A DNA stretch of 64,000 nucleotides. It comes from an uncultured archaeon. Its GTDB lineage: Archaea > Aenigmatarchaeota > Aenigmatarchaeia > PWEA01 > JAGHBM01. This document shows, in pieces, positions 14,855 to 64,000 of this stretch (positions within the stretch are counted from its first letter, which is position 1; each line of letters begins with the position of its first letter). The DNA lies in contig CAZOZN010000002.1 of the NCBI GenBank assembly GCA_964584335.1, forward strand, positions 200,025-264,024. Direction: 5' to 3'. Made by a program: the position numbers and the translations under genes. Under the pieces are notes generated by a model. The model ran no database searches. It had not been told where the DNA came from and saw nothing but the letters and a program-made list of their open reading frames with translations.

Positions 14855-16009
14855 TTAGTATAATCCGGCTTCCTTTTTTAATTTTTCGGCAAGGTCTGTT
14901 TTTTCCCAAGTGAATTCGGGACCTTCCCTTCCGAAATGCCCGTAACAAGAAGTTTTTCTGTAAACTGGTTTCATCAGGTCAAGCTGTTTTATTATTCCGG
15001 AAGGCGTCAAATTGAAATGACTGTTTACTATTTCTGTTATTTTTTTATTCTCGATTTTTTCTGTGCCGAAAGTATCTATCATAACAGACGTTGGCTTGCG
15101 GCCTCCTATTGCATATGAAAGCTGTATTTCACATTTTTCACATATCCCGGATGCCACTAAATTTTTTGCTATATATCTTGCCATGTAGGCAGCTGACCTG
15201 TCAACCTTTGTGGGATCTTTTCCCGAAAAGGCACCGCCTCCATGTCCTCCTGTTCCGCCGTAAGTGTCCGCTATTATCTTTCTTCCAGTCATTCCTGCAT
15301 CTGCCACAGGACCGCCTATTACAAAACGTCCAGTGTTGTTTATGTAGTATTTCGTACTATCGTTGAGCCAGTTGCAGCATACAGGTTTTATTAGCTTTTC
15401 TTTTATGTCTTTCTTTATCCTTTCCGTTTTTACATCCGTGTCGTGTTGTGTGGCTACCACTACGGAAGTTATGTATTTTGGAATACCTCTTTCGTACTTT
15501 ACGCTTACCTGGGTTTTCCCGTCAGGCCTAAGGTATTTTATTTCACCGTTTTTTCTTAGCTCGGTAAGCTTTTTTGCCAATTTCTGCGCCAAAAGTATCG
15601 GCAGAGGCATAAATTCAGGTGTCTCATTTGTGGCATAACCACTCATCATTCCCTGGTCTCCCGCTCCGCTTTCCTGACCATCGACTCCCATTGCTATGTC
15701 AGCAGATTGTTCGTGTATGCTAGTGAGGACACCTACTGTGTTATAATCAAATCCGTATTCAGGTCTGTCGTATCCTATATCACTTATTACTTTTCTTGCA
15801 ATTTGGGAGTAGTTTATACTCGTGCGAGTACTTATTTCACCTGTTATTATTACGAAACCCATTCCTACCATGGCCTCGCATGCAACCCTTGATTCAGGGT
15901 CTTTCTTTATAATTTCATCCAGTATGGCATCAGATATCTGGTCACATACTTTGTCTGGATGACCTTCTGTCATAGCTTCTGAAGTGAAGACAAAATCACC
16001 TTTTTTCAT
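14855..16009 (-). CDS. metK: S-adenosylmethionine synthetase, bacterial/eukaryotic type
   Basis: [41 protein letters not shown] and the overall 384-aa architecture are diagnostic of the MetK family. This is not the archaeal MAT fold. Confidence 0.9.
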
Positions 16010-38064: not shown

Positions 38065-38086
38065 GTAGGTCCACAAAATTTTGTGT

Positions 38087-39364
38087 ATGAATTTAAAGTT
38101 TTTGGGAGGTGCAATGGAAGTTGGCAGGTCGGGAGTTCTTTTAGACACAGGAAGCGAGAAAATATTGATGGATTACGGGATAAAGATAGTAAGCCAGGCA
38201 GAAGGGCCTCTCCAGTCGCCTAAAATACCAATTGCTACCAACCTTAAATTAGATGCGATGTTACTTTCTCATGCCCATTTGGATCACTCCGGTTTTGTTC
38301 CCAACCTTTATAACAGGGGATATAGAGGCCCTACTTATTCCACTGCCACTACTTTTGATTTGGCAAAGGTTTTGCTTAATGACAGCATAAAACTAGCGGA
38401 TTTGAGAAACCAGGAGAAGTATTTCTTTAAAAAAGACCTTAAGAAAATGGAGAAAAATGAGTACAGAATAACTCATGGCCAGCAGTTTTACATAGGAAAA
38501 ACCTCTGTTGGTGTTTACGATGCCGGGCATATACCGGGGTCTGTTTCTTTCCACTTAAACACAGGCAAAAAGTCTATAGTTTATTCAGGTGATATAAAGA
38601 GCAGGGATACCGAGCTTTTGAGGGGTCTTGAGAAAATAAGAGAAAATACAGACATTTTGATTATGGAATCTACTTACGCACAGAGAGACCATCCCGACAG
38701 GGAGGTTCAGGAAAAGAGGCTAACCGATGCGGTAAGAGAGACTCTTGACAAAGGCGGAACAGCTATGATACCTTGTTTTGCTGTAGGCAGGGCTCAAGAG
38801 GTGCTTTTAATACTGCAGAAGTATGGCCTAGACAAGTATCCGATATACCTTGACGGCATGTCTGTGGCAGCCACCGAAATAATTTTAAGATACCCCGAGC
38901 TCATAAACCAGCCCAAGAAGCTTAAAAAAATATATAGTACGATTACTAAAGTTCACAACAACAGGCAAAGAAGCGCTATAACTAAAAAACCCTGCATAAT
39001 AGTTACTACATCCGGAATGCTTAACGGAGGGCCGATTGCATACTACCTCGGCAAGCTTTATAATAGGAAAGATTGTTCTTTAACTTTGACTGGTTTCCAG
39101 GTACCCGGGTCTGCTGGACACGGGCTGTTAGAGACGGGAAATTATGTAACTGATGATAAATCATTTAAGGTAAAATGCAATATAGATTTTATAGATTTGA
39201 GCGCACATTCAGGTAGAAAGGAACTATTTGAATATGTCCAGATGATAGACCCGGAAAAGGTTTTCGTTATACATGGAGATTCCTGTGACAGGTTCGCAAG
39301 GGAACTCGCTGAGAAAGGTTATGATGCATACGCGCCAGAGAGAGGCGAAAAATGCGATTTATGA
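38087..39364 (+). CDS. Beta-CASP family ribonuclease (MBL + beta-CASP, aCPSF2/RNase J-like, no KH domains)
   Basis: MBL motif LSHAHLDHSG. Beta-CASP motifs are present (ESTYA, ...HGD). The ATG at 38087 (MNLKFLGG...) is preferred to the TTG at 38081. Confidence 0.85.
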   Translation: MNLKFLGGAMEVGRSGVLLDTGSEKILMDYGIKIVSQAEGPLQSPKIPIATNLKLDAMLLSHAHLDHSGFVPNLYNRGYRGPTYSTATTFDLAKVLLNDSIKLADLRNQEKYFFKKDLKKMEKNEYRITHGQQFYIGKTSVGVYDAGHIPGSVSFHLNTGKKSIVYSGDIKSRDTELLRGLEKIRENTDILIMESTYAQRDHPDREVQEKRLTDAVRETLDKGGTAMIPCFAVGRAQEVLLILQKYGLDKYPIYLDGMSVAATEIILRYPELINQPKKLKKIYSTITKVHNNRQRSAITKKPCIIVTTSGMLNGGPIAYYLGKLYNRKDCSLTLTGFQVPGSAGHGLLETGNYVTDDKSFKVKCNIDFIDLSAHSGRKELFEYVQMIDPEKVFVIHGDSCDRFARELAEKGYDAYAPERGEKCDL

Positions 39365-40388
39365 TGGTGTTTTTTTGATTGAAGTGGATGGTTCTTACTT
39401 GGAAGGAGGAGGCCAGATTTTGAGGACATCTGTTGCACTTTCTTCTGTTACTGGAAAACCTTTCAAAATTTACAATATAAGGAAAGGCAGAGACAGGTCC
39501 GGACTAAAACACCAGCACTTAAAAGCCATAGAACTCGTTTCTAAAATATCAAGAGCTAAAGTTAAAGGAGCTTCAATAGGTTCAAGCAATGTGGAATTCT
39601 TTCCCGGTTCTTTGAAAGGCGGTAAGTATAAAGTTGATATAGGAACTGCAGGTTCTATAACACTATTGTTGCATGCTGTAATACCACCATGCCTTTATTT
39701 GGGTGAAAATGTTGACATAGAGCTTGTAGGAGGCACCAATGTTCCCTGGTCTCCGACAACTGACTTTTTTCGTCATGTTTTCTGTAATTTCCTTGACAGA
39801 ATGGGTGTTTTTATAAGAGTTGATGTCAAGAAACATGGATTTTATCCTAGAGGTGGAGGAAAAATAAGAGTTCTTATGGAACCGCGCAAAAGACTTAAAA
39901 AACTAAATCTTACTGAAAGAGGCAAGTTCAAAAGAATAGACGTATGGTCTATATCTTCCAAAGATTTAAAGGACAGAAAAGTTTCTGAAAGACAGTTAAG
40001 TTCTTTTAAGGAAAAGCTTAAAATGGAAGGTCACGAACACGCGGTTTACACCGATACTTTGTCTACCGGTACTTCCATACATGCTCATGCACATTATACG
40101 AAAACCAAGCTGGGTGCCGATGTCCTAGGTCAAAAAGGCATACCAGCAGAAAAAATAGGTTCTGACTGTGCTGAAGTATTAAAGAAGCAAATGGAAAGCG
40201 GTGCATGTCTTGATGAGTGGATGGCTGATCAGATACTTCCTTATATGGCTATTTCAGGTGGTGGAAAGGTTTCTGTCGCGGAAGTAACAGAACACTCTAA
40301 GTCAAACATGTGGGTAATAGAAAAATTCCTTCCAGTCAAATTTAAAATAAGGAAAAACATCATAAGTTGCTATAAAGATAAAAAATAA
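39321..40388 (+). CDS. rtcA: RNA 3'-terminal phosphate cyclase
   Basis: IEVDGSYLEGGGQILRTSVALS is the RtcA N-terminal signature. The catalytic His region HAHAH is present. The start is chosen at an internal ATG (MMHTRQ...). The ORF-track start at 39273 would overlap the RNase gene by 92 nt. A TTG at 39375 is another option. Confidence 0.8.
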   Translation: MMHTRQREAKNAIYDGVFLIEVDGSYLEGGGQILRTSVALSSVTGKPFKIYNIRKGRDRSGLKHQHLKAIELVSKISRAKVKGASIGSSNVEFFPGSLKGGKYKVDIGTAGSITLLLHAVIPPCLYLGENVDIELVGGTNVPWSPTTDFFRHVFCNFLDRMGVFIRVDVKKHGFYPRGGGKIRVLMEPRKRLKKLNLTERGKFKRIDVWSISSKDLKDRKVSERQLSSFKEKLKMEGHEHAVYTDTLSTGTSIHAHAHYTKTKLGADVLGQKGIPAEKIGSDCAEVLKKQMESGACLDEWMADQILPYMAISGGGKVSVAEVTEHSKSNMWVIEKFLPVKFKIRKNIISCYKDKK

Positions 40389-45723: not shown

Positions 45724-46011
45724 TCAGTCTTCTTCCATTTCGTCAGGTTCTTTTATTGTCGGTGGAGTTATATGCTGTACTATTACTATGTCATCCACTG
45801 ACTTAACCATTTGATAAGGTACAATAACTCCTCTCTTACTACCAACCATTTCAGCCAAATAAGAGTTTCTGGCAGCTTCTATAACGAGAGATCTTACTCT
45901 GAATTTGTTTAAATTAACCTTTACATCTCCTACTCTTCCACAATAAGTTCCCTTAGTGGTAAAAACGTCTTTTCCAAACATTTCAGAAAGATTTTTCACA
46001 TTTATTGGCAT
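45724..46011 (-). CDS. PRC-barrel domain protein
   Basis: 95 aa with the small beta-barrel pattern (VKVNLNKFRVRSLVIEAA...) typical of archaeal PRC-barrel proteins. Confidence 0.65.
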   Translation of the reverse strand: MPINVKNLSEMFGKDVFTTKGTYCGRVGDVKVNLNKFRVRSLVIEAARNSYLAEMVGSKRGVIVPYQMVKSVDDIVIVQHITPPTIKEPDEMEED

Positions 46012-46120
46012 AACTCTACCCCCTTTTTAATATAATCGTTTACTTTTAATATTTATAGCTCTTACATCTATTTAAATGTTAAAAGAATTTGGGAATTTTA
46101 GATTTTTTGGTTTTAAAGAG

Positions 46121-46208
46121 GCTGAGGTGGCCGAGTGGTTTAAGGCGCTGGCCTGCTAAGCTAGTGGGGCACGTCCCCGCGAGGGTTCGAATCCCTCCCT
46201 CAGCGCCA
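46121..46208 (+). tRNA. tRNA-Ser (anticodon GCT), type II, intron-less, CCA encoded
   Basis: Acceptor GCTGAGG/CCTCAGC. Anticodon loop CT-GCT-AA. Long variable arm. T-arm GAGGGTTCGAATCCCTC. Discriminator G followed by CCA. Confidence 0.85.
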
Positions 46209-46255
46209 TTAAAATCTAATAAGCTTAAATACTAAGAATATAATAAAAAATTGAC

Positions 46256-46387
46256 GGGCTGGTAGTCTAGTGGTTATGACGCTGCCCTTACAAACCTTTT
46301 ACTCAGCGAAAAAGGTTTAATAAAATTGGCTGGATTAAAGTTTGTGAAAGGCAGAGGTCGGGAGTTCGACTCTCCCCCGGCCCACCA
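46256..46387 (+). tRNA. tRNA-Val (anticodon TAC) with a ~55-nt intron at the canonical 37/38 position, CCA encoded
   Basis: Acceptor GGGCTGG/CCGGCCC. Anticodon stem CTGCC...GGCAG with loop CTTACAA. The intron ACCTTTT...GTGAA contains an internal hairpin. T-arm GGGAGTTCGACTCTCCC. Confidence 0.7.
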
Positions 46388-46448
46388 CCAAGGAAATAAA
46401 ACTATAAAAAGGTTGAAAGACCAAGAAGATAAATCAGGAAATGAAAAT

Positions 46449-46624
46449 GCTCCCGTAGTCTAGCTCGGTTAAGGATGCCGGCCTTTCGATTCAAGTCGAA
46501 AGATTTGAGAACCAACTGGGTTCAGTGAAAGAAGAAAGCCGGAGACTCGGGTTCAAAAAAGCTTTTCTTTAAAAAAGAAAAGACTTTAGAAAAGAAAGCT
46601 TGGATTGTCCCGGCGGGAGCACCA
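46449..46624 (+). tRNA. tRNA-Glu (anticodon TTC) with two introns (anticodon loop 37/38 and T-loop), CCA encoded
   Basis: Acceptor GCTCCCG/CGGGAGC. The anticodon stem-loop CCGGC-CTTTCGA is identical to the canonical archaeal tRNA-Glu loop. The 3' half of the stem, GCCGG, lies ~48 nt downstream. The T-stem TCGGG/CCCGG is interrupted after TTCAAA by a ~50-nt insert. The insert is closed by an AAGCTTTTCTTT...AAAAGAAAGCTT helix. Confidence 0.65.
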
Positions 46625-46798
46625 ATAAAATTTATGGGAATTTTGAGTTTCTCAAACCCCTTAAAATAACATTTTTAGGGCTTCTAGTATATAAATCTTA
46701 TTAAAAATGCCCCTAAACCTTTATATTTGAGTGTTTCAAAATGTTACTATAGACGGCCTAGAGGCCTCTTAAACACAATTTAGTGGAGGTGTAAAAAA

Positions 46799-46966
46799 AT
46801 GGCATTGATTGTAAAGAACGCAATAAAAGATTTGGTAAGAGGAAAAGCAAACGTAAGCGCTGATTTCTATGATGCTTTGGACACAGAAGTAAAAGACATA
46901 GTACACAAAGCATTAAAAAGAGCAAAAGACAACAGCAGAAAAACAATTCAAGCAAGAGACCTTTAA
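46799..46966 (+). CDS. Histone-fold protein truncated after helix alpha2 / L2 (55 aa)
   Basis: MALIVKNAIKDLVRGKANVSADFYDALDTEVKDIVHKALKRAKDNSRKTIQARDL aligns by eye with archaeal histone HMfB ([53 protein letters not shown]). It ends where alpha3 would begin. A GGAGGTG Shine-Dalgarno is 7 nt upstream. Confidence 0.55.
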   Translation: MALIVKNAIKDLVRGKANVSADFYDALDTEVKDIVHKALKRAKDNSRKTIQARDL

Positions 46967-46995
46967 ATCGGTCTCTTTTCTCTTTTTATTTTTTT
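46955..46995 (+). terminator. Hairpin (AGAGACC/GGTCTCT, loop TTTAAATC) followed by a T-rich tract
   Basis: A perfect 7-bp inverted repeat overlaps the stop of the histone-fold gene and is followed by TTTCTCTTTTTATTTTTTT. Confidence 0.5.
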
Positions 46996-47078
46996 AACTT
47001 TTTAACTTTTTTTTAAATGATTAATAATAAAAGATTAATAAGACTAAGAAAAAACAGGAAAAACACATTTGCATTATG

Positions 47079-47255
47079 CGGGGGTACCCAAGAGAGCTTT
47101 TAGAAAAAGCTCAAGCAAAAATCTAAAGCTCTGGGAATGGCCAAAGGGGCAGGACTTAAGAAAGCTTTTTGGAAAAAGCTTTACCAAAAACTTCAACTCT
47201 GAGAAATCCTGTGAACGTAGGTTCTCCGTGAGTTCGAATCTCATCCCCCGCACCA
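47079..47255 (+). tRNA. tRNA-Leu (anticodon TAA), type II, with two introns (D-loop and anticodon loop 37/38), CCA encoded
   Basis: Acceptor GCGGGGG/CCCCCGC. The D-loop is interrupted by a ~40-nt insert closed by AGAGCTTT...AAAGCTCT. Anticodon stem CAGGA/TCCTG with loop CTTAAGA, and a ~45-nt intron after position 37. Long variable arm. T-arm TGAGTTCGAATCTCA. Confidence 0.65.
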
Positions 47256-47289
47256 ATCTTTTTATTTTATTAAGTTCTAAGATGTCTTT

Positions 47290-47838
47290 ATGAACAACTT
47301 GGTTGCTGTTGTCGGTATGCCCGGATGCGGAAAGAGTGAATCAGTTAAGATTTTTGAGGATTCTGATTTTTTCAAGGTTTATTTTGGAGGGGTAGTTATA
47401 GAGGAATTAAAAAAAAGAGACATGGAAATAAATGAAAAAAATGAATCTTTCATGAGAGAAAAACTTAGAGAAGAACAGGGGATGTCTGCAATGGCTAAGC
47501 TTAGCATCGATAAGATAAAAGAAAAGCTTTCAGAAAGCAATGTAGTAATAGATGGACTTTATTCAATGGAAGAATACGAACTTCTTAAAAAAGAATTTCC
47601 AAATATGATGGTTTTTTGCGTTTTCTCTTCACCAAAGACTAGACACGAAAGGCTTTCAAAAAGGACTGTAAGACCTTTAAAGAGAGAAGAGTCTTCTAAT
47701 AGGGATAAGAATCAGATAAAGAATCTTCATACCGGCGGTCCTATAGCACTTGCTGATTTTACAGTTGTTAACGAATCAACTCTTTATGAACTGAAGGAAA
47801 AAACTAATGCTTTTATTGAGAGCATAACTAAAGATTAG
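47290..47838 (+). CDS. P-loop nucleotide kinase family protein (dephospho-CoA-kinase/adenylate-kinase-like fold)
   Basis: Walker A VVGMPGCGKSE at the N-terminus. Size is 182 aa, and it resembles the archaeal UPF0200-type kinases. Confidence 0.65.
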   Translation: MNNLVAVVGMPGCGKSESVKIFEDSDFFKVYFGGVVIEELKKRDMEINEKNESFMREKLREEQGMSAMAKLSIDKIKEKLSESNVVIDGLYSMEEYELLKKEFPNMMVFCVFSSPKTRHERLSKRTVRPLKREESSNRDKNQIKNLHTGGPIALADFTVVNESTLYELKEKTNAFIESITKD

Positions 47839-47839
47839 T

Positions 47840-48949
47840 ATGCCTCTTTCACATTTTCAATGCTTTAATTGTAAAAAAGATTTTTCAAAAAATGATGTCC
47901 TGTTTTGGTGTCCCGAATGCGGAGGCTCTTTGGTAGTTCTTTACAAAAAAGACAAGATTAAAAGGCATATAAAAAAGACCAAATTCAAAAGTCAGAAACC
48001 TTCTCACTGGAAATATTGGATGTTCTACCCACTACCCAAGAACGTAGAAAGGGTGACAATGAGCGAAGATGACACCCCTTTAATAAAAGATAAGAACAAT
48101 GATGATTATTTTTTAAAATTCGAGGGAGCCAATTCTACAGGCAGCTTCAAGGATAGAGGTTCTACTGTAGAAATAACGCATGCCAAGCAACTTGGTGTAA
48201 AAAAGGTTGCCTGTGCATCCACAGGTAATATGGGCGCTTCTGTTTCGGCTTATTCCTCAAGGGCTGGTATAAAGGCAACGATATATGTTCCAAAGGGAGC
48301 TCCTATAATAAAGAGAGAACAAATAAAAAAGTACGGTGCAAGAATAGTCAGAATAAATGGAGATTATACAGACGCATTAAACAAGACAAAAAAGCTTTGG
48401 ACCGAGAAGAAGACATATCTTACCGGCGATTATTTGTATAGACAAGAGGGCCAAAAATCTGTTATAATCGAATCGATTGACCAGATGAATTTTGATGTTC
48501 CTGATTACGTCGTTATTCCTGTCGGAATGGGAAATCTTTGTTACGCGACTTACAAGGGATTGATAGAAATGAAAATGGTCGGTCTTATTAATAAAATACC
48601 AAAGATAGTGACTGTTCAATCCTTTCATTGTTCTACCGTTGTAAAGGCCTTAAATAAAAATATGGATAAAATACCTGTTGTTAAAAATCCTAATACTATA
48701 GCCTCTGCTATTTCTTGCGGTAAACCCAACTACGGCAGGGAGGCACTTTTTGCTGTAAGAGGCACGGGAGGTACTGGAGTGTCTGTAACTGAAAAAGAAA
48801 TAAAGGATTCGAGGAAAAGTCTTGCCAGGCAAGGCATTTATACAGAGGCTTCCGGCGCAGTCAGTTATGCTGGTGCAAAAAAACTAAATCTTAAGGGCAA
48901 ATGTTTAATAATCTTGACAGGACACGGCCTTAAAGATACACTAATTTAA
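47840..48949 (+). CDS. thrC: Threonine-synthase-family PLP enzyme with N-terminal C4 zinc ribbon
   Basis: PLP-lysine motif GSFKDRG, glycine loop GNMGAS and a fold-type II layout. The N-terminus is CFNCKK...CPECGG. It starts 2 nt after the kinase stop. Confidence 0.75.
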   Translation: MPLSHFQCFNCKKDFSKNDVLFWCPECGGSLVVLYKKDKIKRHIKKTKFKSQKPSHWKYWMFYPLPKNVERVTMSEDDTPLIKDKNNDDYFLKFEGANSTGSFKDRGSTVEITHAKQLGVKKVACASTGNMGASVSAYSSRAGIKATIYVPKGAPIIKREQIKKYGARIVRINGDYTDALNKTKKLWTEKKTYLTGDYLYRQEGQKSVIIESIDQMNFDVPDYVVIPVGMGNLCYATYKGLIEMKMVGLINKIPKIVTVQSFHCSTVVKALNKNMDKIPVVKNPNTIASAISCGKPNYGREALFAVRGTGGTGVSVTEKEIKDSRKSLARQGIYTEASGAVSYAGAKKLNLKGKCLIILTGHGLKDTLI

Positions 48950-48983
48950 AAACGTTTTAAATAAGTTTTTACAAGATTAAATC

Positions 48984-49964
48984 ATGGATTCGAAAACATT
49001 AAGAAAGCACAGTCAAAAACTTCTAAAACTTAAACAGGAAATACAGAAAGGAATAATAGGACAGGAGTATGTAATAGATTCCGTAATAAAATGTTTGATG
49101 TGTAATGGTCATGTTCTTTTGGAAGGAGTTCCAGGCTTGGCAAAGACCTTACTTGTAATGCTTTTGGCGAGGTCTGTTTCTGATAGTGTTTTCAAGAGAA
49201 TACAATTCACCCCTGATTTGTTGCCTTCTGATATAACAGGCACGACCATGTATATAGAGAGAGAAGGCACGTTCAAGGCACAGAAAGGTCCAATTTTTGC
49301 AAACTTCGTTCTTGCCGACGAAATAAACCGTACAACACCAAAAGTACAGAGCTCAATGCTTCAGGCAATGCAGGAGAGGGAAGTTACCATAGGCAAGGAG
49401 ACTTTTTCTCTTCCTAAGCCGTTTATAGTTCTTGCTACCGAGAACCCTCTCGAACAGGCAGGTACTTATCCATTAGCTGTTGCTCAAACAGACAGGTTCC
49501 TTTTTAAGATTTTTGTTGATTATCCCAAGGAAGATGAGGAAATTAAAATTATAGATATAAATTCAGTTGTTAAAGGCATGAAAGATTACAAGACCAAGCC
49601 AGTAGTTACACCTAAAGATATTCAAAAAGTACAAGAAATAGTAAGGAAAATTAAAATAAGCGACAGTGTTAAGGATTACATACTTAATATAGTCGAATCT
49701 ACAAGAGTTCCTGAGAAATATGGTCTCGAGTTTCACAAGTTTATAGATTATGGTGGAAGTCCTAGAGCTTCTATTTATCTTGCTCTTTCAGGTAAGGCAA
49801 GTGCTCTCATGAACGGAAGGGATTATGTAATACCAGATGATATAAGGGAAGTGGCACCAAACGTACTCAGACATAGAATAATAATGAACTATGAAGGCAA
49901 GGCAAGAAACATTTCTACTGACGATATAATAAAAGAGATTATAGATACTGTTCCGGTGGTTTAG
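48984..49964 (+). CDS. MoxR-family AAA+ ATPase (copy 1)
   Basis: Walker A GVPGLAKT. Walker B/sensor region VLADEINRTTPKVQSSMLQAMQEREVTIG. Size of 326 aa is typical of MoxR/MRP. Confidence 0.9.
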   Translation: MDSKTLRKHSQKLLKLKQEIQKGIIGQEYVIDSVIKCLMCNGHVLLEGVPGLAKTLLVMLLARSVSDSVFKRIQFTPDLLPSDITGTTMYIEREGTFKAQKGPIFANFVLADEINRTTPKVQSSMLQAMQEREVTIGKETFSLPKPFIVLATENPLEQAGTYPLAVAQTDRFLFKIFVDYPKEDEEIKIIDINSVVKGMKDYKTKPVVTPKDIQKVQEIVRKIKISDSVKDYILNIVESTRVPEKYGLEFHKFIDYGGSPRASIYLALSGKASALMNGRDYVIPDDIREVAPNVLRHRIIMNYEGKARNISTDDIIKEIIDTVPVV

Positions 49965-56006: not shown

Positions 56007-59000
56007 TTACCAAGAGGCGTTAGCCATTATTGTTATTACTCCTGAATATTCACCGAAATAAACCGGATAAGAGTCTATCCAGAAGTACATGTTGTATATT
56101 ATTCCAGACTGGGGGTTTGATTGTATTGTTTTGTACGTAGTGCTGAGGTTTTCAGATGTCGGATATCCGCTACAACCCTTACACCAGCTTATGTTTCCAA
56201 CTCCCAGATTAGAATACCCAGATGAAAGATGTGTTCCTTTTATGTAAATACCGTCACCATCATTTGAGTTTTTAGCTAATCCAATCTGATAAGGATTTCC
56301 TGGTGCTGCCAATCCTTGCTGGTTGGGGTTTTCATTTCCCCAGTCTATACTGTTAGTTGATACATTCAGCACCAGTACTTTACCTATCCTTATCAGAGAG
56401 TTGGTTGTGTCGTTAGAGGGGTTATAGAATATAACATCAATGTTGTAGTAATCATCAAGATTGCCTGTTGCATTTACTATCCATAACATGTTGCAGCTTT
56501 CATCCTGGTTTAGGTTGCATGTTTGCGGGTTTGCGTTTAAAGTGTAGAAAGGAGTCCCGCTTGCTGGGATGTTTGTGTTGGGTTCTCCCGAGGTTGAATT
56601 GTATCTTACTGCTCCTTCTATGTTACCGCAGTTGTCATCTTTACATGTTACTGTTGCATTTACAGTGAAGTTTCTGTACAAAGGAACTATTGTATTATCC
56701 GGAGGCGTGTTTAGTTTTACCACCAACCTTCCCGCATATTCTACCTGAGTTATATTGACTGTAGAATTGTCTTCATAGTTACTGGAGGAGTTGTAGTAAA
56801 GAGAATTTTGGTTGGTTATGTTACATTTTGTATAATATATTCCATTTGAATATATACTCTTGTTTACGTACCAGTTAGCCGTAGCTCTTCCTGACGGGGA
56901 TGACTCAGTAGTATTTACAAACCACTCGTGTGTGTTGTTGTATACATAGAAACTTACATTATAATCTTCTATTCCAGAGTCTGTTTCATTGTCTTTTACG
57001 TCACATTGTAGCTGTATGGTTTCTGTTTGGTTATATTTTGAACCAGAGGGTGGAGAAAACCATTCAATTTTTGAGTAACCTCTTACGAATATGTCTCTTT
57101 CATCAAAACCATTCTGGTAATTGTTCTTGTAAGTTGTTATATTTATTTTGTTTATTCCAACGCTCATGTCATTTGGAACAATCCAAGTGGAATTTTCCTG
57201 GTTTGATATTTCTCCCGGTTCGCTTTTCCATGACACGGAGTCAGGGATTATATTAATTCCATTCTCGTCTTCGGTCGTAGAGTTGAGTTTAACGGTTTCT
57301 CCTCTCCAGTATTCACTTTCATTTATCGGATATTGTATTGAAGTGTTTAAAATTCCCTGAAGTGTAATTGTACCGGAATCATCCGATATTATACTTTTCT
57401 CGTAATAAAGTGAGGGCTCATCTCCTATTTCACAATGGAGTGTCTCGTCGCCAACAGGATAACCGGAAAAATCATAATCTATGCTTGCATGGCCCGAAGA
57501 GTTTGTGTCTGATGAACCCAACTGGTCCCAAGTGGAGTTGTAGAAAACTACAGTATAATCTTCAATGGGCTGACCATTGTTGTAATCTTTTACCCTGGCT
57601 ACCAGTTTTAAACTTCCCCTATTTTTATATCCCGTGGGTGATATCCATTCAACTTCCGAGTATCCCTTAACAGTAAATTCTATGTATGGAAGGGAGTCAT
57701 TCATATTTCCAAGTGAATCGTTTGCATAGGCTTTTATAACGTGTTTTCCAACTAACCAGTCGTCTCCTATTCCTATGCTTATGTTTGTCCAGTTTTGGGT
57801 GTAGGGAGAGTCTGCACCATTCTCTATCATAGAAGATGAGGTTGAGTTGTACTCCCAGTATGCATAATCAGGCATATCATCCCATAGAGCGTAAGCCTTT
57901 ATGGCTTCATCCTTGTATACATTAGTTTCATTTATGTTATAATTGTTATTTACTATTCTGGGTGCCTGTGTATCTTCTCCAGGAACAGCCGTATAAAGAG
58001 TGTCCGATAAAACGTAGTTTTCAGAAGCGTTGTAATAACTGGGTAAATTATCAGTTATATTGCATGTTATTAATTCATTCCCGCTGCTCTGGTCTGTATA
58101 ATTCCAGTAAGCCCAGCCATCACTTCCCGTTGTGTTTGTTCCTAGTTCGTGTGTTTGGTTGTAGAATTTCACTGGATAGTCTTCTATTGATTCCGAAGAA
58201 TTAGAATCCTCCACTTTACATCCTATTATACTTGAGTTACCCACGTAAATTGTATCAGGGTTGAGTTCTATTTCTGTAACAGAAGCCCATCCCCAAGCTT
58301 CAAAATCGAGAATGCCAGTCACGTTGTAGTTTCCGAAAAAGTCCTCCCCGAAAATTCTCCATTGAACCGAACCGAGCTCGGAATCAGCGGGATAACTAAA
58401 GCTGAAGTTGGACCATGACTCGTTTCCTGACATTGATAGGGGGCTGTGCAGGCTCGAGTTAAGAAATACACCTGTATCATTTGATTCCAATACAGCCTGA
58501 GACAGCCGGTAGTTATCGGTCCAGTAAGCAGAAATCTTAAGGCTTTCTCCCTTGTGAACCACTTCCTTGCTGCTTTCGGTGCTGTACCACTTCGGCTTTT
58601 CATTTTCTCTTGTTGTCAGCTCCAGGGTTCTTTGATAGCTTGTTTCAGAGGCGTTATAATAACTTGAAGGCTTGTCAGTTATGTTGCATGTTATTGTTTC
58701 CGTACCGAGTGAGTTGTCTGTCCAAGTAAAGTTAGACCATCCTGTTTGGTTGGTTTTGCCTACATACATGAGGTCCGTGGAATTGTAGAAGCTTATGTTG
58801 TAATCTTCCAAATAATAATTTTCGTCATCCCTTACTCTGCAGTAGAAAGTTACCTGCTCTCCTTGGTTTATTGTTTTGGATGACGGGCTTGAATCTGTAA
58901 CAGAAGCTATTCCGTAAACTTCAAATTCCATGTAAGTTAGGGTTCCATTTATATTGTCATTCAAATCATAACCGTAAATCTTTGCGACATGTTTTCCAGT

Positions 59001-62000
59001 ATCCCAGCTGCTGTTAGTCTCCATGGTAAAGTTTGTCCATGTTCCCGAAGGGCTTAAACTCTCGTTCTTTAATGGGTTCGTTGAATTAAACTCGACCTTT
59101 GATGTACCCATTTCTTCTGTCCAGTTTGCGTATATCTTTATGTTTTGACCCCTCAAAACTGATTCCGGTTCAATTCCATATATCTCGTTTTTAAGTTTTG
59201 GCGGTTGGTCTTCTGAAAGTATTATGTTAAAGGTGTCTGTATATGTCTTTATGAAATCTGTATCATTTATTATGAACTTGACAGCCTTTTCTTCCTGCGA
59301 AGTTGTGTTTATTTCCAACACATAATAAAAAGTCGCATTGGAACCCGGGGAAACTTTACCTCCCTGACCGGTATTCCATGATACATTTCCCTGATTAAAA
59401 GAACCTCCAGTAAATTCGGTACCATTATTATACCAAATATCGCTTTCTGATATTTTCCAGTTATTTAGGAACACATGAACTATATCAGAACCGCTTATAT
59501 CCCAGTCTTCTGTGCTTTGCATACTATTCTCCAAGTAAAATTCAATCCTGTATTTTTCACCCGTGTAAAGATTGAAAGTCTTGTTCAAACCATAATCAAT
59601 TAGATTGCTTGTGTTTGTATGTGTGTTGCTTGCTTCGGTTACATCATACACTGTTATATTCTTCAGGCTAACCCTTGAATCTGGTTGGGTTATGTTGAAT
59701 TCATATGTTCCTATAATGTAACTACCGTTTGTATTTTCAAGTATGTTGCCGTAAGGGTCTGTGAAACCCACCCAAGCTCTATATGTATCATTATCGCACC
59801 TTTTTGTATTCCAACTATCCCAAATGTTTCTTAGTTCCAGATAGTTGTAAGAACTAACATTTCTTCTTATCGATTCGTTTGTATCGTCCCATACAACTTC
59901 AAAGTCACCCCATCCTGTTCCTGTTTTCTTCTGAACTTTCATTAATAGGTAACCTGATGTATTTAGCTCCAATTGGTTAACAAAACTTGGAGACTGATAA
60001 TACTCCCCGCTAAGAGATGTGGATATTCCGGATGCTGTTGATTCTATTTGGCCGTAGCTAGTCGAACCAACTCCCGAATCAGTGTAATACATATAGTAAG
60101 TTTTTTCCGAATTCGGGTTAATAGTAACATTGAAAACGACTGTTGCGTTTTCGTAATAGTTTCCATCGTATTGAGCTTCCTTTATAAAGGAGTGAATAGA
60201 ACTGCCTGTTGAGTTGTAAATTCTTATTGAGTTGTTGTAGGCGTGTTCTTCTGCGAAGTTTACAAAAATTTCTGCAGGTTCTTTGTTTCTTCCAACACCA
60301 TTTTCTTCGGTTACGTTTATTTCTTTTCTGTATTTCCATGAAGGGTTGAACCAATTGTCCAATATATCCTCCAGCATTACATTCTCATTAGGGCCATATT
60401 CTTTTTCCTCGGTTTCAATATCTATAAGAGCAGATGATAAAACCTCAAAACTGAAAGTGCTGGAATTCCCTATGTTGTTTAAAGTATCATTAGCCCAAAC
60501 ATAATAGTAATAATTTCCTATTTCCCATGTATCTTTGAATGAACCCCTGAAGAAATTTGTTTCAGATTCTCCGTATGATATGAGAGAATCCGTTCCTGAC
60601 ATGAAAGTGGAATTTATCCAAGAGTCTGTTCTTGTTATATTGGAGAACTGTATTTCATCTATTTTACCTTCAAAGTAGCTTGTATCATCGAAACCCCCGC
60701 CTGTCTGACTTTCTGTTGCAGAGAACGCCATATATTGACTGCCTGGTGCACTTCTAGTACATTCGTAAATGTCTTTAAGTTCTCCGTCTAAATAGGCCTT
60801 TTCGTGTGAGCCGTTGTAAACCAAAGTTAAATGGTACCATTTGTTTTGGTTTATTGTTCCGAAAATAAGGTCGTCATTACAATTCCATATGTTTCCTCTT
60901 AGCTCTTTGTCACTGTTAAGACCTATCTTAGTGTAGTGATAACCAGAGTTTATTGTCTTCTGGCCCAATTCCGATACTATAACACCAGAATCTTCGGCAT
61001 AAACCCATAGGGAAAGTGTTTCTGTGCTCGGTGATGAAGTAAGCTGGTCGCTTATTAAGTAGTCATCGTTACCGTCAAAACTGTCTGCCCCGTCTATTTT
61101 ACCTGTCTTTTGCATGTTTGTATCCGGCGTTACATATTCCGTCAAATTGTTACCCCTTGAAGTAGAATCTGTGGCATTACCCGTGTTTTGGGAGAGATGC
61201 CATATTCCTATATAATCAGTATCCCAGACACCGCTGCTGTTCTGTCTGTCCTCCGCATTGCTGTTGCCGTAGTAAAGCCAGAAGGTTGTGTTTGAAGTGG
61301 ATGAAACAGCAGGCAGCCTTACCCAGACAAAGGAATCACCCGATTCATTCCACTTTTCTATCTCGTAGTCAAGCAAAGTATCATTCAAGATAAACCTTAC
61401 GTCCTCCCCGTTATCCTGTGTATTCGAGTAATCTATTCTAGAGGAATTAAGTTTAACCATTACCGGGAAATCAGACAGGTCTTCCTTTATCTTCCCCGAG
61501 TCTATTAAAAGTGGCATCCTATGATTCCAGGAAGAGTTCCAAAAGTTTTCAAGGCTTACATTTTCCATTTCAATCCAGTATTCATATCCTTCGGGACTCT
61601 CTATGTGGCTTCTTACTTTGTCTAGGCCATCCTCGTCTTCCACTTTAGATGATATGTTTATTTTCTGGCCATAACCTATTTGTTCCTGCGAAACTTCTGT
61701 TTCCGATATCTGCGGATTATCATGTATTGATATGGTCGTATAATTGTAAGAGTAAAATGTGAAGTAAGGGTGTCCTGTCTGTGAATGGGTTACGTTTATT
61801 GTATAGTTTCCTATATTCTTTGTATCGGGTATCTGATATTCTATTGAACCGTATCCTGAGCTATTGGTCTGAGAAAATCCTATATTCTCACCGTCCATTA
61901 TAAAGTTTATAAATTCTCCCTCAACGGGGTTTTGTGTGTCGTTATACAACAAGACCGAGGATATTTCTATAGTGTCTCCCGTTACCGGATTGTAGTTGCT

Positions 62001-64000
62001 TGATTTTGTTTCTGTAACAAGGGTACCGGTCCATACTTCTATGTCTCTTTTTCTTAAATCTTCATAGCCGTTTGAAGATTCTGATTCTATTATTACTTCA
62101 TTTGGCCCAAGGGAAGACGATGAATTGACTTCTATTGTTATATTGTTCCATTTTATTTCTCCTGGTGTTATATTACCAACAAATTTTTTCATACTACCAC
62201 TTGTGTTTATCCAACCGTTCGGGAGCGTATAATTTAGCCATACGTTTGTTATGTTTGTGCTTGAAAGTGTGTTATTTACATATGTTGTAATATTTACAGT
62301 GTTTGTTCTGGTAATGTTTTGAGGATAGTTGTATTCTATTATTTCTAATCCTACTGACCTTACTTTAAGTATCTGGCTTTCTTGAGTGTACCAGTTTCTA
62401 TTTTCGGAACCCGGGTTAATGTAACTCAGGTTTGCAGTTATGTTGTAGTCTCCCACCGGAGTAGAACTGTTTGTTTGTATTACAAAACTGGCTGTCCATG
62501 AATTTCCTCCTTTCTCATCCCCAAAATCTAGAAGGTAGTCTTTTCCTGACTGGTATGTTGCGTTTATCCATCCTATAGAACGGTCTTTATCTGATACTCT
62601 AACCTCATCTATGTCTCCAAGGAAATACTCGTTTACTGCATTACATGATGCTCCTATTGATACGTAATTCTGCCAGTTGAAGTTTGATTCGTTTTTGCAG
62701 TTGCTTGCCTTTTGTGCTCCATCTATGTATATCTTTTGTCCCGATAGACTGTTTACAGTATGCACTACCTTATGCCATTCACCATCCGCAACGTTTTCAC
62801 CCGAAGTGCACAGGGTCTCAGAACATCCGAATTCTGTTGGCCATGTCCTTACGCATATATCTCCCCCGCTTATGTATACATGCCTGTCATGTCCGTTTTG
62901 ACAAGAACCCGTGTTACCATGAGCATGGAATATGCCTCTGTTGTTGTTTGTTGTCTTGAACCATATTTCTGTTGTGAAATTTGTTAAAGGCATTACTAAA
63001 GGAACTTCTACGTGGTCGTTACTTCCATCGAAATTATTTGCACCATCAAATATTCCTTTTTGGTCTAAATAGGAGTCTGACATATCCATAGCCTCACCAT
63101 TTTTACTATTTCCAGAAGAATCGTAATGGTCATTGTAACTTCCGCTGGTCCTTGAAGTTTCTTCAAGATGATGAACCATCATATAGTTTTCATCCCAGAC
63201 ACCGCTGCTGTTCTGTCTGTCCTCCGCATTGCTGTTGCCGTAGTAAAGCCAGAAGGTTGTGTTTGAAGTGGATGAAACAGCAGGCAGCCTTACCCAGACA
63301 AAGGAATCACCCGATTCATTCCACTTTTCTATCTCGTAGTCAAGCAAAGTATCATTCAAGATAAACCTTACGTCCTCCCCGTTATCCTGTGTATTCGAGT
63401 AATCTATTCTAGAGGAATTAAGTTTAACCATTACCGGGAAATCAGACAGGTCTTCCTTTATCTTCCCCGAGTCTATTCTAATCTCTCTTTTTTTGTCCCA
63501 AGATTCGTTCCACCAGCTGGTTGACTCAAGAATATTATTTACTTCGCATGTTCCGCCATATTGTCCTGTCAAATTACATGAGCAATTAAATCCCAAAGAG
63601 TCCGGACAATTTATCGTGACATTAACATCTGTTATATTTTCCGACCAGGGATTAGTTATTTTGAAGCTGTATTCTGAGCTGTTTCCTTTGTATATTTCAT
63701 CCGGCGTTAGCGATGATGTTAGCTGTTCTTTTAAATTGTGTACTGTAAATGTCTCTGATGTGATAAAAGTGGTGTTCGCGTTTTTACCCATTATTGTTAT
63801 GTTCCAGTTAAATGTGTAAGTTCCTGTTGTAGCATCTTTAGGTATTCTGTAACCGTTTGAGGAATTATCGAACATCTTGGTGCAGAATTGGTTTTTTTCT
63901 ATATTGCTGCAATTTTTGGTTTCATTCGGACCCCAGCTGACTTTCTCTCCGTCTTTAAGTATGTTGAGTGTCACATTTACGTTTACTGCTTCTGACTCAA
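56007..64000 (-). CDS. Giant (more than 2655 aa, N-terminus outside window) cell-surface protein with repeated DUF2341/LamG-like (concanavalin-type jelly-roll) and Ig-like beta-sandwich modules
   Basis: The reading frame stays open from 56007 to the window end. The ORF-track M at 63974 is an internal GTG. It contains two identical 96-aa DUF2341-like modules (DSGKIKEDLSDFPVMVKLNSSRIDYSNTQDNGEDVRFILND...FWLYYGNSNAEDRQNSSGVWD). LamG-like segments include FDGSNDHVEVP...TTEIWFKT. There are hundreds of N-x-S/T sequons and no C-terminal anchor. Confidence 0.8.
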   Translation of the reverse strand, partial: ESEAVNVNVTLNILKDGEKVSWGPNETKNCSNIEKNQFCTKMFDNSSNGYRIPKDATTGTYTFNWNITIMGKNANTTFITSETFTVHNLKEQLTSSLTPDEIYKGNSSEYSFKITNPWSENITDVNVTINCPDSLGFNCSCNLTGQYGGTCEVNNILESTSWWNESWDKKREIRIDSGKIKEDLSDFPVMVKLNSSRIDYSNTQDNGEDVRFILNDTLLDYEIEKWNESGDSFVWVRLPAVSSTSNTTFWLYYGNSNAEDRQNSSGVWDENYMMVHHLEETSRTSGSYNDHYDSSGNSKNGEAMDMSDSYLDQKGIFDGANNFDGSNDHVEVPLVMPLTNFTTEIWFKTTNNNRGIFHAHGNTGSCQNGHDRHVYISGGDICVRTWPTEFGCSETLCTSGENVADGEWHKVVHTVNSLSGQKIYIDGAQKASNCKNESNFNWQNYVSIGASCNAVNEYFLGDIDEVRVSDKDRSIGWINATYQSGKDYLLDFGDEKGGNSWTASFVIQTNSSTPVGDYNITANLSYINPGSENRNWYTQESQILKVRSVGLEIIEYNYPQNITRTNTVNITTYVNNTLSSTNITNVWLNYTLPNGWINTSGSMKKFVGNITPGEIKWNNITIEVNSSSSLGPNEVIIESESSNGYEDLRKRDIEVWTGTLVTETKSSNYNPVTGDTIEISSVLLYNDTQNPVEGEFINFIMDGENIGFSQTNSSGYGSIEYQIPDTKNIGNYTINVTHSQTGHPYFTFYSYNYTTISIHDNPQISETEVSQEQIGYGQKINISSKVEDEDGLDKVRSHIESPEGYEYWIEMENVSLENFWNSSWNHRMPLLIDSGKIKEDLSDFPVMVKLNSSRIDYSNTQDNGEDVRFILNDTLLDYEIEKWNESGDSFVWVRLPAVSSTSNTTFWLYYGNSNAEDRQNSSGVWDTDYIGIWHLSQNTGNATDSTSRGNNLTEYVTPDTNMQKTGKIDGADSFDGNDDYLISDQLTSSPSTETLSLWVYAEDSGVIVSELGQKTINSGYHYTKIGLNSDKELRGNIWNCNDDLIFGTINQNKWYHLTLVYNGSHEKAYLDGELKDIYECTRSAPGSQYMAFSATESQTGGGFDDTSYFEGKIDEIQFSNITRTDSWINSTFMSGTDSLISYGESETNFFRGSFKDTWEIGNYYYYVWANDTLNNIGNSSTFSFEVLSSALIDIETEEKEYGPNENVMLEDILDNWFNPSWKYRKEINVTEENGVGRNKEPAEIFVNFAEEHAYNNSIRIYNSTGSSIHSFIKEAQYDGNYYENATVVFNVTINPNSEKTYYMYYTDSGVGSTSYGQIESTASGISTSLSGEYYQSPSFVNQLELNTSGYLLMKVQKKTGTGWGDFEVVWDDTNESIRRNVSSYNYLELRNIWDSWNTKRCDNDTYRAWVGFTDPYGNILENTNGSYIIGTYEFNITQPDSRVSLKNITVYDVTEASNTHTNTSNLIDYGLNKTFNLYTGEKYRIEFYLENSMQSTEDWDISGSDIVHVFLNNWKISESDIWYNNGTEFTGGSFNQGNVSWNTGQGGKVSPGSNATFYYVLEINTTSQEEKAVKFIINDTDFIKTYTDTFNIILSEDQPPKLKNEIYGIEPESVLRGQNIKIYANWTEEMGTSKVEFNSTNPLKNESLSPSGTWTNFTMETNSSWDTGKHVAKIYGYDLNDNINGTLTYMEFEVYGIASVTDSSPSSKTINQGEQVTFYCRVRDDENYYLEDYNISFYNSTDLMYVGKTNQTGWSNFTWTDNSLGTETITCNITDKPSSYYNASETSYQRTLELTTRENEKPKWYSTESSKEVVHKGESLKISAYWTDNYRLSQAVLESNDTGVFLNSSLHSPLSMSGNESWSNFSFSYPADSELGSVQWRIFGEDFFGNYNVTGILDFEAWGWASVTEIELNPDTIYVGNSSIIGCKVEDSNSSESIEDYPVKFYNQTHELGTNTTGSDGWAYWNYTDQSSGNELITCNITDNLPSYYNASENYVLSDTLYTAVPGEDTQAPRIVNNNYNINETNVYKDEAIKAYALWDDMPDYAYWEYNSTSSSMIENGADSPYTQNWTNISIGIGDDWLVGKHVIKAYANDSLGNMNDSLPYIEFTVKGYSEVEWISPTGYKNRGSLKLVARVKDYNNGQPIEDYTVVFYNSTWDQLGSSDTNSSGHASIDYDFSGYPVGDETLHCEIGDEPSLYYEKSIISDDSGTITLQGILNTSIQYPINESEYWRGETVKLNSTTEDENGINIIPDSVSWKSEPGEISNQENSTWIVPNDMSVGINKINITTYKNNYQNGFDERDIFVRGYSKIEWFSPPSGSKYNQTETIQLQCDVKDNETDSGIEDYNVSFYVYNNTHEWFVNTTESSPSGRATANWYVNKSIYSNGIYYTKCNITNQNSLYYNSSSNYEDNSTVNITQVEYAGRLVVKLNTPPDNTIVPLYRNFTVNATVTCKDDNCGNIEGAVRYNSTSGEPNTNIPASGTPFYTLNANPQTCNLNQDESCNMLWIVNATGNLDDYYNIDVIFYNPSNDTTNSLIRIGKVLVLNVSTNSIDWGNENPNQQGLAAPGNPYQIGLAKNSNDGDGIYIKGTHLSSGYSNLGVGNISWCKGCSGYPTSENLSTTYKTIQSNPQSGIIYNMYFWIDSYPVYFGEYSGVITIMANASW
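61222..61507. repeat. Perfect 286-nt direct repeat, copy A (inside the giant surface-protein gene)
   Basis: Nucleotide-identical to 63192-63477 over its whole length, checked base by base in the printed sequence (offset 1970 nt). Confidence 0.9.
63192..63477. repeat. Perfect 286-nt direct repeat, copy B
   Basis: Identical to 61222-61507. It encodes the same 96-aa DUF2341-like module. Confidence 0.9.

Follow-up and report, generated by a model that had tools for sequence, protein, structure and literature searches.

Three of the four tRNA genes in a short archaeal cluster are broken up by inserts of about 50 nucleotides, an arrangement already known from other archaea. The cluster lies at 46121-47255 of a 64,000-nt stretch of DNA from an uncultured archaeon (assembly GCA_964584335.1, contig CAZOZN010000002.1; the whole stretch is referred to here as the window). 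It consists of genes for tRNA-Ser, tRNA-Val, tRNA-Glu, and tRNA-Leu, all on the + strand and each with an encoded CCA. The Ser gene carries no intron, the Val gene one, and the Glu and Leu genes two each. We conclude, with a probability of about 90%, that these are four functional, separately spaced DPANN tRNA genes, and that the inserts in Val, Glu, and Leu are archaeal bulge-helix-bulge (BHB) introns spliced by proteins. The genes, with the means by which each was detected, are as follows.

46121..46208, + strand: tRNA-Ser(GCT), class II, no intron (Rfam RF00005, 61.5 bits; ARAGORN).
46256..46387, + strand: tRNA-Val(TAC), 132 nt, exons 46256-46292 and 46349-46387 (Rfam, 54.9 bits; ARAGORN -i).
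46449..46624, + strand: tRNA-Glu(TTC), 176 nt, exons 46449-46488, 46537-46557, and 46608-46624, spliced length 78 nt (ARAGORN after removal of both inserts; acceptor-stem scan).
47078..47255, + strand: tRNA-Leu(TAA), 178 nt, class II with a long variable arm, exons 47078-47092, 47138-47160, and 47206-47255, spliced length 88 nt (ARAGORN after removal of both inserts).

Two of these genes were visible to standard tools. The tRNA-Ser gene was intron-less, as an earlier sequence-only reading of the locus had described it, and the canonical intron of ∼55 nt which that reading gave to tRNA-Val was found at position 37/38 with a length of 56 nt. Rfam aligned the Val gene with a 57-nt insertion, and ARAGORN run with -i reported intron i(38,56) at 46293-46348, leaving a spliced tRNA of 76 nt. 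In contrast, the unspliced Glu and Leu genes gave no match with ARAGORN, with or without -i, or with Rfam, even at E<=10. Their ends were recognized on reading the sequence (GCTCCCG...CGGGAGC-A-CCA for Glu, GCGGGGG...CCCCCGC-A-CCA for Leu). The earlier reading had the interrupted genes escaping naive tRNA scanning, and Glu and Leu did so. Short open reading frames (ORFs) overlie the tRNA genes at 46089-46235, 46326-46463, 46600-46704, and 47069-47293, and their description as spurious stands.

Removal of the inserts restored recognizable tRNAs. Deleting 46489-46536 and 46558-46607 from the Glu gene gave a 78-nt tRNA-Glu(TTC), and deleting 47093-47137 and 47161-47205 from the Leu gene gave an 88-nt class II tRNA-Leu(TAA); ARAGORN folded each as a clean cloverleaf. 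The sequence-only reading had named a failure of the exons to fold as the outcome that would tell against it; cloverleaves were obtained for Val (76 nt), Glu (78 nt), and Leu (88 nt), as is expected when archaeal BHB introns are taken out of tRNA genes. The two inserts in each gene could also be told apart by partial deletion. With the noncanonical insert alone deleted, ARAGORN -i called a gene with a single canonical intron for both Glu and Leu, and with the canonical insert alone deleted it made no call for either gene. Random double deletions of the same sizes, 300 per gene, produced a tRNA call of any kind in 9 trials for Glu and 23 for Leu; where a listed call had the correct anticodon, the deletions started near the true intron positions. 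For Glu, the canonical intron and the T-loop insert of ∼50 nt proposed earlier were borne out, at 48 and 50 nt. For Leu, both the D-loop and the 37/38 introns stood, but the D-loop intron measured 45 nt rather than the proposed ∼40 nt. Deletion of a 40-nt insert there yielded no tRNA-Leu(TAA), and ARAGORN instead reported a spurious tRNA-Leu(AAG) with an 8-nt intron.

To search for tRNA genes independently of these tools, we scanned both strands of the window for a 7-bp acceptor stem combined with U8, a discriminator, and CCA. The scan recovered precisely the four genes, with lengths of 88, 132, 176, and 178 nt. Nine further matches were judged weak (4-5 G:C pairs, 5' ends differing from the initial G of the cluster genes, location within ORFs), so that the scan for acceptor stem plus CCA revealed no additional hidden tRNA in the window. 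BLAST likewise found no extra copies of the five introns in the window. The GC content is 62% in the exons, 32% in the introns, and 37% in the window as a whole. The five introns are listed here with the class of their junctions.

46293..46348, + strand: Val intron at 37/38, 56 nt, 30% GC, relaxed BHB.
46489..46536, + strand: Glu intron 1 at 37/38, 48 nt, strict hBHBh'.
46558..46607, + strand: Glu intron 2 in the T-loop at 59/60, 50 nt, 26% GC, placed by homology, relaxed motif.
47093..47137, + strand: Leu intron 1 in the D-loop between G15 and U16, 45 nt, BHB without an outer helix.
47161..47205, + strand: Leu intron 2 at 37/38, 45 nt, BHB, 4/4.

A BHB junction comprises two 3-nt bulges on opposite strands, which contain the splice sites, and a 4-bp helix between them, and relaxed forms (HBh', hBH, and BHL) are recognized as well. 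We asked whether the 4 nt ending two before the 5' cut pair with the 4 nt ending two before the 3' cut, each cut falling after the second nucleotide of a 3-nt bulge. This register test was applied at junctions defined by alignment, and shifts were allowed only if they left the spliced product unchanged. A simpler scan that asked only for a 4/4 central helix was dropped as unspecific: continuous helices pass it too. All five introns of the window have junctions of the BHB form, strict at Glu 37/38, Leu 15/16, and Leu 37/38 and relaxed at Val 37/38 and Glu 59/60, in agreement with the earlier suggestion that the inserts are BHB substrates.

At Glu 37/38, the central helix CUUU:gaag is paired at 4/4 positions, with an outer helix of 5 bp and an inner helix of 2 bp. 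Leu 37/38 has the 4/4 central helix CUUA:ugag and an outer helix of 6 bp, and an internal hairpin takes the place of the inner helix. In the Leu D-loop, C10-C11-C12-A13 pair with uggg (CCCA:uggg, 4/4), the 5' bulge reads A14 G15|a and the 3' bulge aa|U16, and the inner helix extends over 7 bp (GAGCUUU:AAAGCUC); this motif is present in the unconstrained minimum-energy fold. The Val 37/38 junction pairs at 3/4 positions in the canonical register, with one U-U, and at 4/4 one nucleotide downstream with the product unchanged. The inverted repeats said to close the inserts are present, as AAGCTTTTCTTT (46559-46570) and AAAGAAAGCTT (46591-46601) in Glu and as AGAGCTTT (47093-47100) and AAAGCTCT (47125-47132) in Leu, and they are the inner (h') helices of the BHB motif. 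A related locus provided the decisive check on the 45-nt boundary: the Leu gene of L002 (one of the numbered related loci described below) has no D-loop intron and reads CCCAAGTGGCC, the exact predicted junction; the intron-free allele (CCCAAGTGGCCAAAGGGG) is the exact predicted ligation product. Because cloverleaves are restored, the junction geometry fits, and relatives gain or lose introns precisely at such junctions, these data support the view that the inserts behave as archaeal BHB introns.

The cut site in the Glu T-loop is a real residual uncertainty. Its inner helix of 8 bp contains the inverted repeat given above. The central helix pairs at only 2/4 positions in the strict register and reaches 4/4 (UUCA:ugga) if the 3' bulge is 4 nt (uugU), 1 nt longer than in relatives, including L004, which leaves the exact 3' cut uncertain by 1 nt. 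Since cuts under strict geometry would give a T-loop of 6 or 8 nt, the placement at 59/60 rests on homology. An alternative is therefore that the introns are real but that this one is cut in another register, giving the 8-nt UUCAAAGU or some other atypical T-loop, or that it is processed inefficiently; ARAGORN, which accepts loops of 5-10 nt, does not discriminate between these outcomes. Orthologous genes favor 59/60. Spliced there, all six Glu orthologues give the mature T-loop UUCAAAU, and in four of them (L002, L004, L009, and L016) the central helix is 4/4, as UUCA:ugag, ugga, or ugaa. An 8-nt loop would break the conserved T54-A58, 7-nt architecture, and broad-specificity EndA enzymes are reported to accept disrupted bulges (PMC5829648). 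We consider a different register unlikely, although it is the alternative that retains the most weight.

We compared the cluster with related loci. Relatives were found through homologues of the gene just downstream of tRNA-Leu and the contigs encoding them, and through a DNA scan with Leu exon 2; a contig search for related loci with the downstream AAA_17 protein confirmed none. Five loci are syntenic: L002, L004, L047, L048 (from the closed genome CP070662.1, 832,879 bp), and L049. The shared order is a PRC-barrel gene, Ser, Val, Glu, a 55-aa gene, in some cases AlaX, Leu, and an AAA-family ATPase gene. The spliced tRNAs of the window were aligned, with tolerance for introns, to these five loci together with L016 and L009, so that the comparative counts cover eight loci including the window and 57 inserts including its five. 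In L002, L004, and L005, Rfam at the gathering threshold detected zero tRNAs; all tRNA genes there hold several introns.

Exons were conserved across these loci, whereas introns differed in length and sequence. Identity to the window genes was 77-84 of 85 exon positions for Leu and 67-72 of 75 for Glu. Ser has no intron in the window but two each in L002, L004, and L049; Val has one in the window and one to three in relatives; Glu has two in the window and two or three in relatives; and for Leu, present in seven of the loci, the insert counts are 2, 2, 3, 3, 4, 4, and 4. Once spliced, 25 of 25 orthologues from the eight loci were called by ARAGORN as the expected tRNA, and across the same loci no unspliced gene with at least two inserts was called. 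Seven orthologous spliced Leu sequences share a cloverleaf consensus fold with two compensatory pairs, and the alignment of Glu exons with six orthologues contains a compensatory change in the anticodon stem and also folds as a cloverleaf. When only product-preserving shifts were admitted, the central helix was 4/4 in 38 of the 57 inserts and 3/4 in 11; by our own arithmetic, a random 4/4 helix is expected in ∼2% of cases per register. Exons and introns also covary: at Leu 15/16, CCCA:uggg is matched by CCCG:cggg, an exon-intron compensatory change in L004, and at Leu 53/54, CGUG pairs with cacg or caug where CGCG pairs with cgcg. Exon conservation, the excess of BHB register, and exon-intron covariation together constitute strong evidence that the inserts have been maintained as splicing substrates rather than being damage to the genes.

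These comparisons bear directly on the possibility that the Glu and Leu genes are pseudogenes destroyed by small hairpin repeats resembling miniature inverted-repeat transposable elements, with functional copies elsewhere in the genome. The inserts are indeed A/T-rich, carry inverted repeats near their ends, and form part of repeated sequence families, and standard tRNA finders miss both genes. However, their exons are fold-competent and conserved, with compensatory changes, in seven related loci, and the syntenic cluster of every relative examined holds only interrupted copies. The BHB register lies far above chance, no target-site duplication was seen on reading the junctions, and the insert-free allele equals the exact predicted ligation product. 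Redundant copies are also made unlikely by the small size of the relatives' genomes (∼0.83 Mb for CP070662.1). Decay by hairpin insertion is thus a very improbable account of this locus.

Self-splicing group I or II introns, or some other ribozyme-type element, have hardly any probability as the identity of the inserts. Group I introns do occur in archaea, including in DPANN rRNA genes (PMC6125680), and in the anticodon loops of bacterial tRNA genes, but the inserts, at 45-56 nt, are much too short to hold a group I or II core. A search of 46000-47400 with Rfam at E<=10 matched neither an intron nor a ribozyme family, no ribozyme core (>200 nt and recognizable by covariance model) was found, and the positions and geometry of the inserts fit BHB. 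That the structure arose through misassembly or chimerism in a metagenome-assembled genome (MAG), conceivable for a window from an uncultured organism, has next to no probability. Error in a single assembly is unlikely as its source, because the independent Logan assembly of SRR15425351 (L001) is identical to window 46178-49229 over 3,052 nt that include Val, Glu, and Leu, and at least seven further assemblies, made in different projects and including the closed 832,879-bp genome, show the same architecture.

The Leu genes of some relatives appear to be still more heavily interrupted. In L016 (JAGGZI010000034.1, minus strand of the locus, ∼1132-1453), tRNA-Leu(TAA) appears to hold four introns, of 82 nt at 15/16, 55 nt at 37/38, 86 nt at 53/54, and 14 nt at 59/60, all with 4/4 central helices. 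The Leu gene of L048 (CP070662.1, locus positions 1615-1871) apparently also has four (49 nt at 15/16, 13 nt at ∼21/22, 46 nt at 37/38, and 64 nt at 59/60), and that of L009 (1697-1974) possibly does too. The spliced products of the four-insert genes were called as an 88-nt tRNA-Leu. The mini-introns of 13-14 nt in L016 and L048 begin alike, with ACCTAYG. The 23-nt Leu exon 2 (TGGCCAAAGGGGCAGGACTTAAG) was also found verbatim in 41 GTDB representative genomes (loci L006-L046), mostly labeled as DPANN; the labels comprise Altiarchaeota, Micrarchaeota, Aenigmatarchaeota, Iainarchaeum, Pacearchaeota, Parvarchaeota, Nanohalarchaeota, Undinarchaeota, Nanoarchaeota, and some Methanosarcinales. In a rough alignment, many of the 41 have large inserts at 15/16, 37/38, and the T arm (e.g., Micrarchaeota L007 and L024), and multi-intron Leu genes look widespread in DPANN.

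Intron sequences also recur between genes. The window's Glu 37/38 intron has homologues at the same site in L002, L016, L047, and L049 (z, 8.5-12), and its Val intron resembles the one at 37/38 in the L049 orthologue (z, 11.9). Other similarities cross positions or tRNAs. Within the window, the Leu 15/16 and 37/38 introns are paralogous in sequence (z, 7.5-10, with none of 200 shuffles reaching the score), and the corresponding pair in L048 looks identical for approximately the first 30 nt of its alignment. The Glu 59/60 intron resembles the Ser T-loop intron of L004 (z, 14.3), the Leu 15/16 intron of L016 (z, 12.8), and the Leu 53/54 intron of L004 (z, 11.8), again with 0 of 200 shuffles. All these z values are somewhat inflated, as shuffling preserved no more than the mononucleotide composition of introns that are A/T-rich and form hairpins. 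The core common to this family is AAGCCTTTCTTT...AAAGAAAGCCTTTAGGGAAAGA. A second apparent family (GACGCGCACGAAGTGTGCGTC), seen by eye only, unites Val T-loop introns with one Leu T-loop intron. Similar introns in nonorthologous genes and at other positions are the pattern of transposing tRNA-intron families, and similar intron sequences across tRNAs in Thermoproteales have been interpreted as large-scale intron transposition (PMC4033280, PMC4090602). Because intron sequences recur here across different tRNAs and positions, they suggest transposition of the kind proposed for that order. The introns have probably spread by duplication or transposition and been gained and lost quickly.

A stronger version of this idea is that the lineage is a second major hotspot of actively spreading BHB introns, independent of Thermoproteales. 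Under it, intron families would be copied between genes and positions, including from 37/38 to the D-loop of the same Leu gene, with turnover so rapid that almost no site is the same in close relatives. We regard the hotspot proposal as tentative and give it somewhat less than even odds.

Several observations weigh against the conclusion that these are functional genes with protein-spliced introns. Splicing is inferred from sequence. One U-U mismatch interrupts the central helix at the Val junction, an outer helix is missing at Leu 15/16, and the Glu T-loop junction fails the strict register. The composition-only shuffles temper the case for intron families. Finally, neither EndA nor RtcB was found among window ORFs of at least 120 aa (Pfam, and E<=0.1 on ORFs without matches); the sequence-only reading had called for an EndA search, and Pfam placed none in the window ORFs.

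If the inserts are protein-spliced BHB introns, processing would follow the textbook archaeal route. Each intron-bearing gene would be transcribed into a precursor of 130-180 nt, and a BHB or relaxed-BHB motif would fold at every exon-intron junction. The splicing endonuclease EndA would then cut within both bulges, and an RtcB-type ligase would join the exons, yielding a 76-nt tRNA-Val, a 78-nt tRNA-Glu, and an 88-nt tRNA-Leu with their encoded CCA. With introns at 15/16 and 59/60, away from the anticodon loop, and with relaxed geometry at two junctions, the cluster would be expected to require an EndA of broad substrate specificity. In several DPANN lineages, loop-bearing EndAs go together with increased tRNA gene disruption (Kaneta et al., PMC5829648), and 59/60 and 53/54 are known sites of noncanonical introns (PMC4090602).

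The sequence content of the window supports a host that is a DPANN archaeon close to Aenigmatarchaeota. The best named matches of its seryl-tRNA synthetase (SerRS) are from Candidatus Aenigmarchaeota, at 71-73% identity, and the closest whole Leu genes or exons are from Aenigmatarchaeota MAGs. The window also encodes STT3/AglB, Lhr, subunits of pyruvate:ferredoxin oxidoreductase (four-subunit-type POR), TyrRS, parts of an ADP-forming acetyl-coenzyme A synthetase, and a membrane pyrophosphatase. One neighbor within the cluster serves as a landmark of synteny and lies outside the tRNA genes.

46799..46966, + strand: conserved 55-aa ORF between Glu and Leu, histone-fold-like or DUF1931-like.

This ORF had no Pfam match at E<=0.001 but matched PDB entry 9f2c (E=1e-9) and proteins with a CBFD_NFYB_HMF domain (E ∼4e-5). 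The gene occupies the equivalent place in L002, L004, L047, and L049, and in L048 it is also present, upstream.

Other features of the surroundings are recorded as observed. Comparison of window 46040-46120 with L002 820-880 and L004 480-530 revealed a conserved promoter-like box, CTATTTAAATGTTAAA, that lies ∼5-7 nt upstream of tRNA-Ser in relatives and ∼30 nt upstream in the window, where ∼25 extra nt separate it from the gene. A gene for RtcA (RNA 3'-terminal phosphate cyclase, with RTC and RTC_insert domains; 39273-40388, + strand) adjoins one for a beta-CASP/RMMBL ribonuclease (38081-39364, + strand), at a distance of ∼6 kb from the tRNA genes. Both are RNA-end-processing enzymes; the presence of RtcA is not evidence for splicing. 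A 2,655-aa ORF (56007-63974, − strand) with Laminin_G_3, DUF2341, Big_1, and NPCBM_assoc domains probably encodes a giant surface or adhesion protein of a kind common in DPANN. The S-adenosylmethionine synthetase gene (14855-16009, − strand) belongs to the bacterial/eukaryotic MetK type rather than the archaeal one, with S-AdoMet_synt N, M, and C domains, and adjoins an HhH-GPD glycosylase gene; in L004, the same pair stands beside the AAA-family ATPase gene.

Multiple-intron tRNA genes of Thermoproteales (Crenarchaeota), from the work of Sugahara (2007/2008) and Fujishima (2010), are reviewed in PMC4033280 and PMC4090602. The genes of that order (Pyrobaculum, Thermofilum, Caldivirga) resemble those described here in their short BHB or relaxed introns at 37/38 and at D- and T-arm sites (PMC4033280, PMC4090602), in carrying two or three introns per gene, in sharing similar introns between different tRNAs, and in going unseen by ordinary tRNA finders. 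They differ in several respects. Here the genes belong to a low-GC DPANN archaeon of mesophile type; position 15/16 is absent from the list of sites quoted in PMC4090602; and relatives of the window reach four inserts per gene, whereas the reviews consulted give three as the maximum (PMC4033280). Thermoproteales use an (alpha-beta)2 EndA with a crenarchaeal loop.

Within the same superphylum as our host, ARMAN-1 and ARMAN-2 with their epsilon2 EndA, Nanoarchaeum, and the Woese- and Pacearchaeota with an alpha4 EndA carrying an L3 loop (PMC3239211, PMC5829648) likewise link noncanonical or multiple introns to endonucleases with an extra specificity loop. Unlike those lineages, this cluster showed neither split nor permuted genes; its exons are collinear and contiguous within 132-178 nt. 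Incomplete predicted tRNA sets in DPANN have been taken to point to unidentified disrupted genes (PMC5829648), exactly the situation encountered here. In another superphylum, the Asgard Atabeyarchaeia and Freyarchaeia have intron-rich tRNA genes that were recognized by manual curation of complete genomes (PMC11291895). The sequence-only reading had placed multi-intron tRNAs mainly in Thermoproteales and a few deep lineages; that view needs widening, as the host is itself a DPANN archaeon and such genes are also known from DPANN and Asgard archaea (PMC5829648, PMC11291895). Their proposed use as a taxonomic marker is weak at fine scale, given that the number and position of introns differ among close relatives. 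We found no specific description of tRNA introns in Aenigmatarchaeota in the searchable literature.

The mechanism is that of textbook archaeal tRNA splicing, and the result adds a lineage to known biology without altering that biology. The sequence-only reading proved right in essentials; what is added is a corrected intron boundary, the assignment of the host, and evidence from relatives for rapid intron turnover and for intron families. For annotation, two of the cluster's four genes escape ARAGORN and Rfam at default settings, so that DPANN genomes seem to be short of essential tRNAs while spurious ORFs are called over the missed genes. For the enzyme, Aenigmatarchaeota are predicted to need a splicing endonuclease that cuts relaxed motifs in the D- and T-loops; if the hotspot proposal is true, the phylum would possess an uncharacterized EndA of very broad specificity. 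For evolution, the syntenic cluster is a ready series of close relatives with different intron complements, suited to the study of how BHB introns are gained, copied, and lost, and under the same proposal it would be a natural comparative series for how archaeal introns move.

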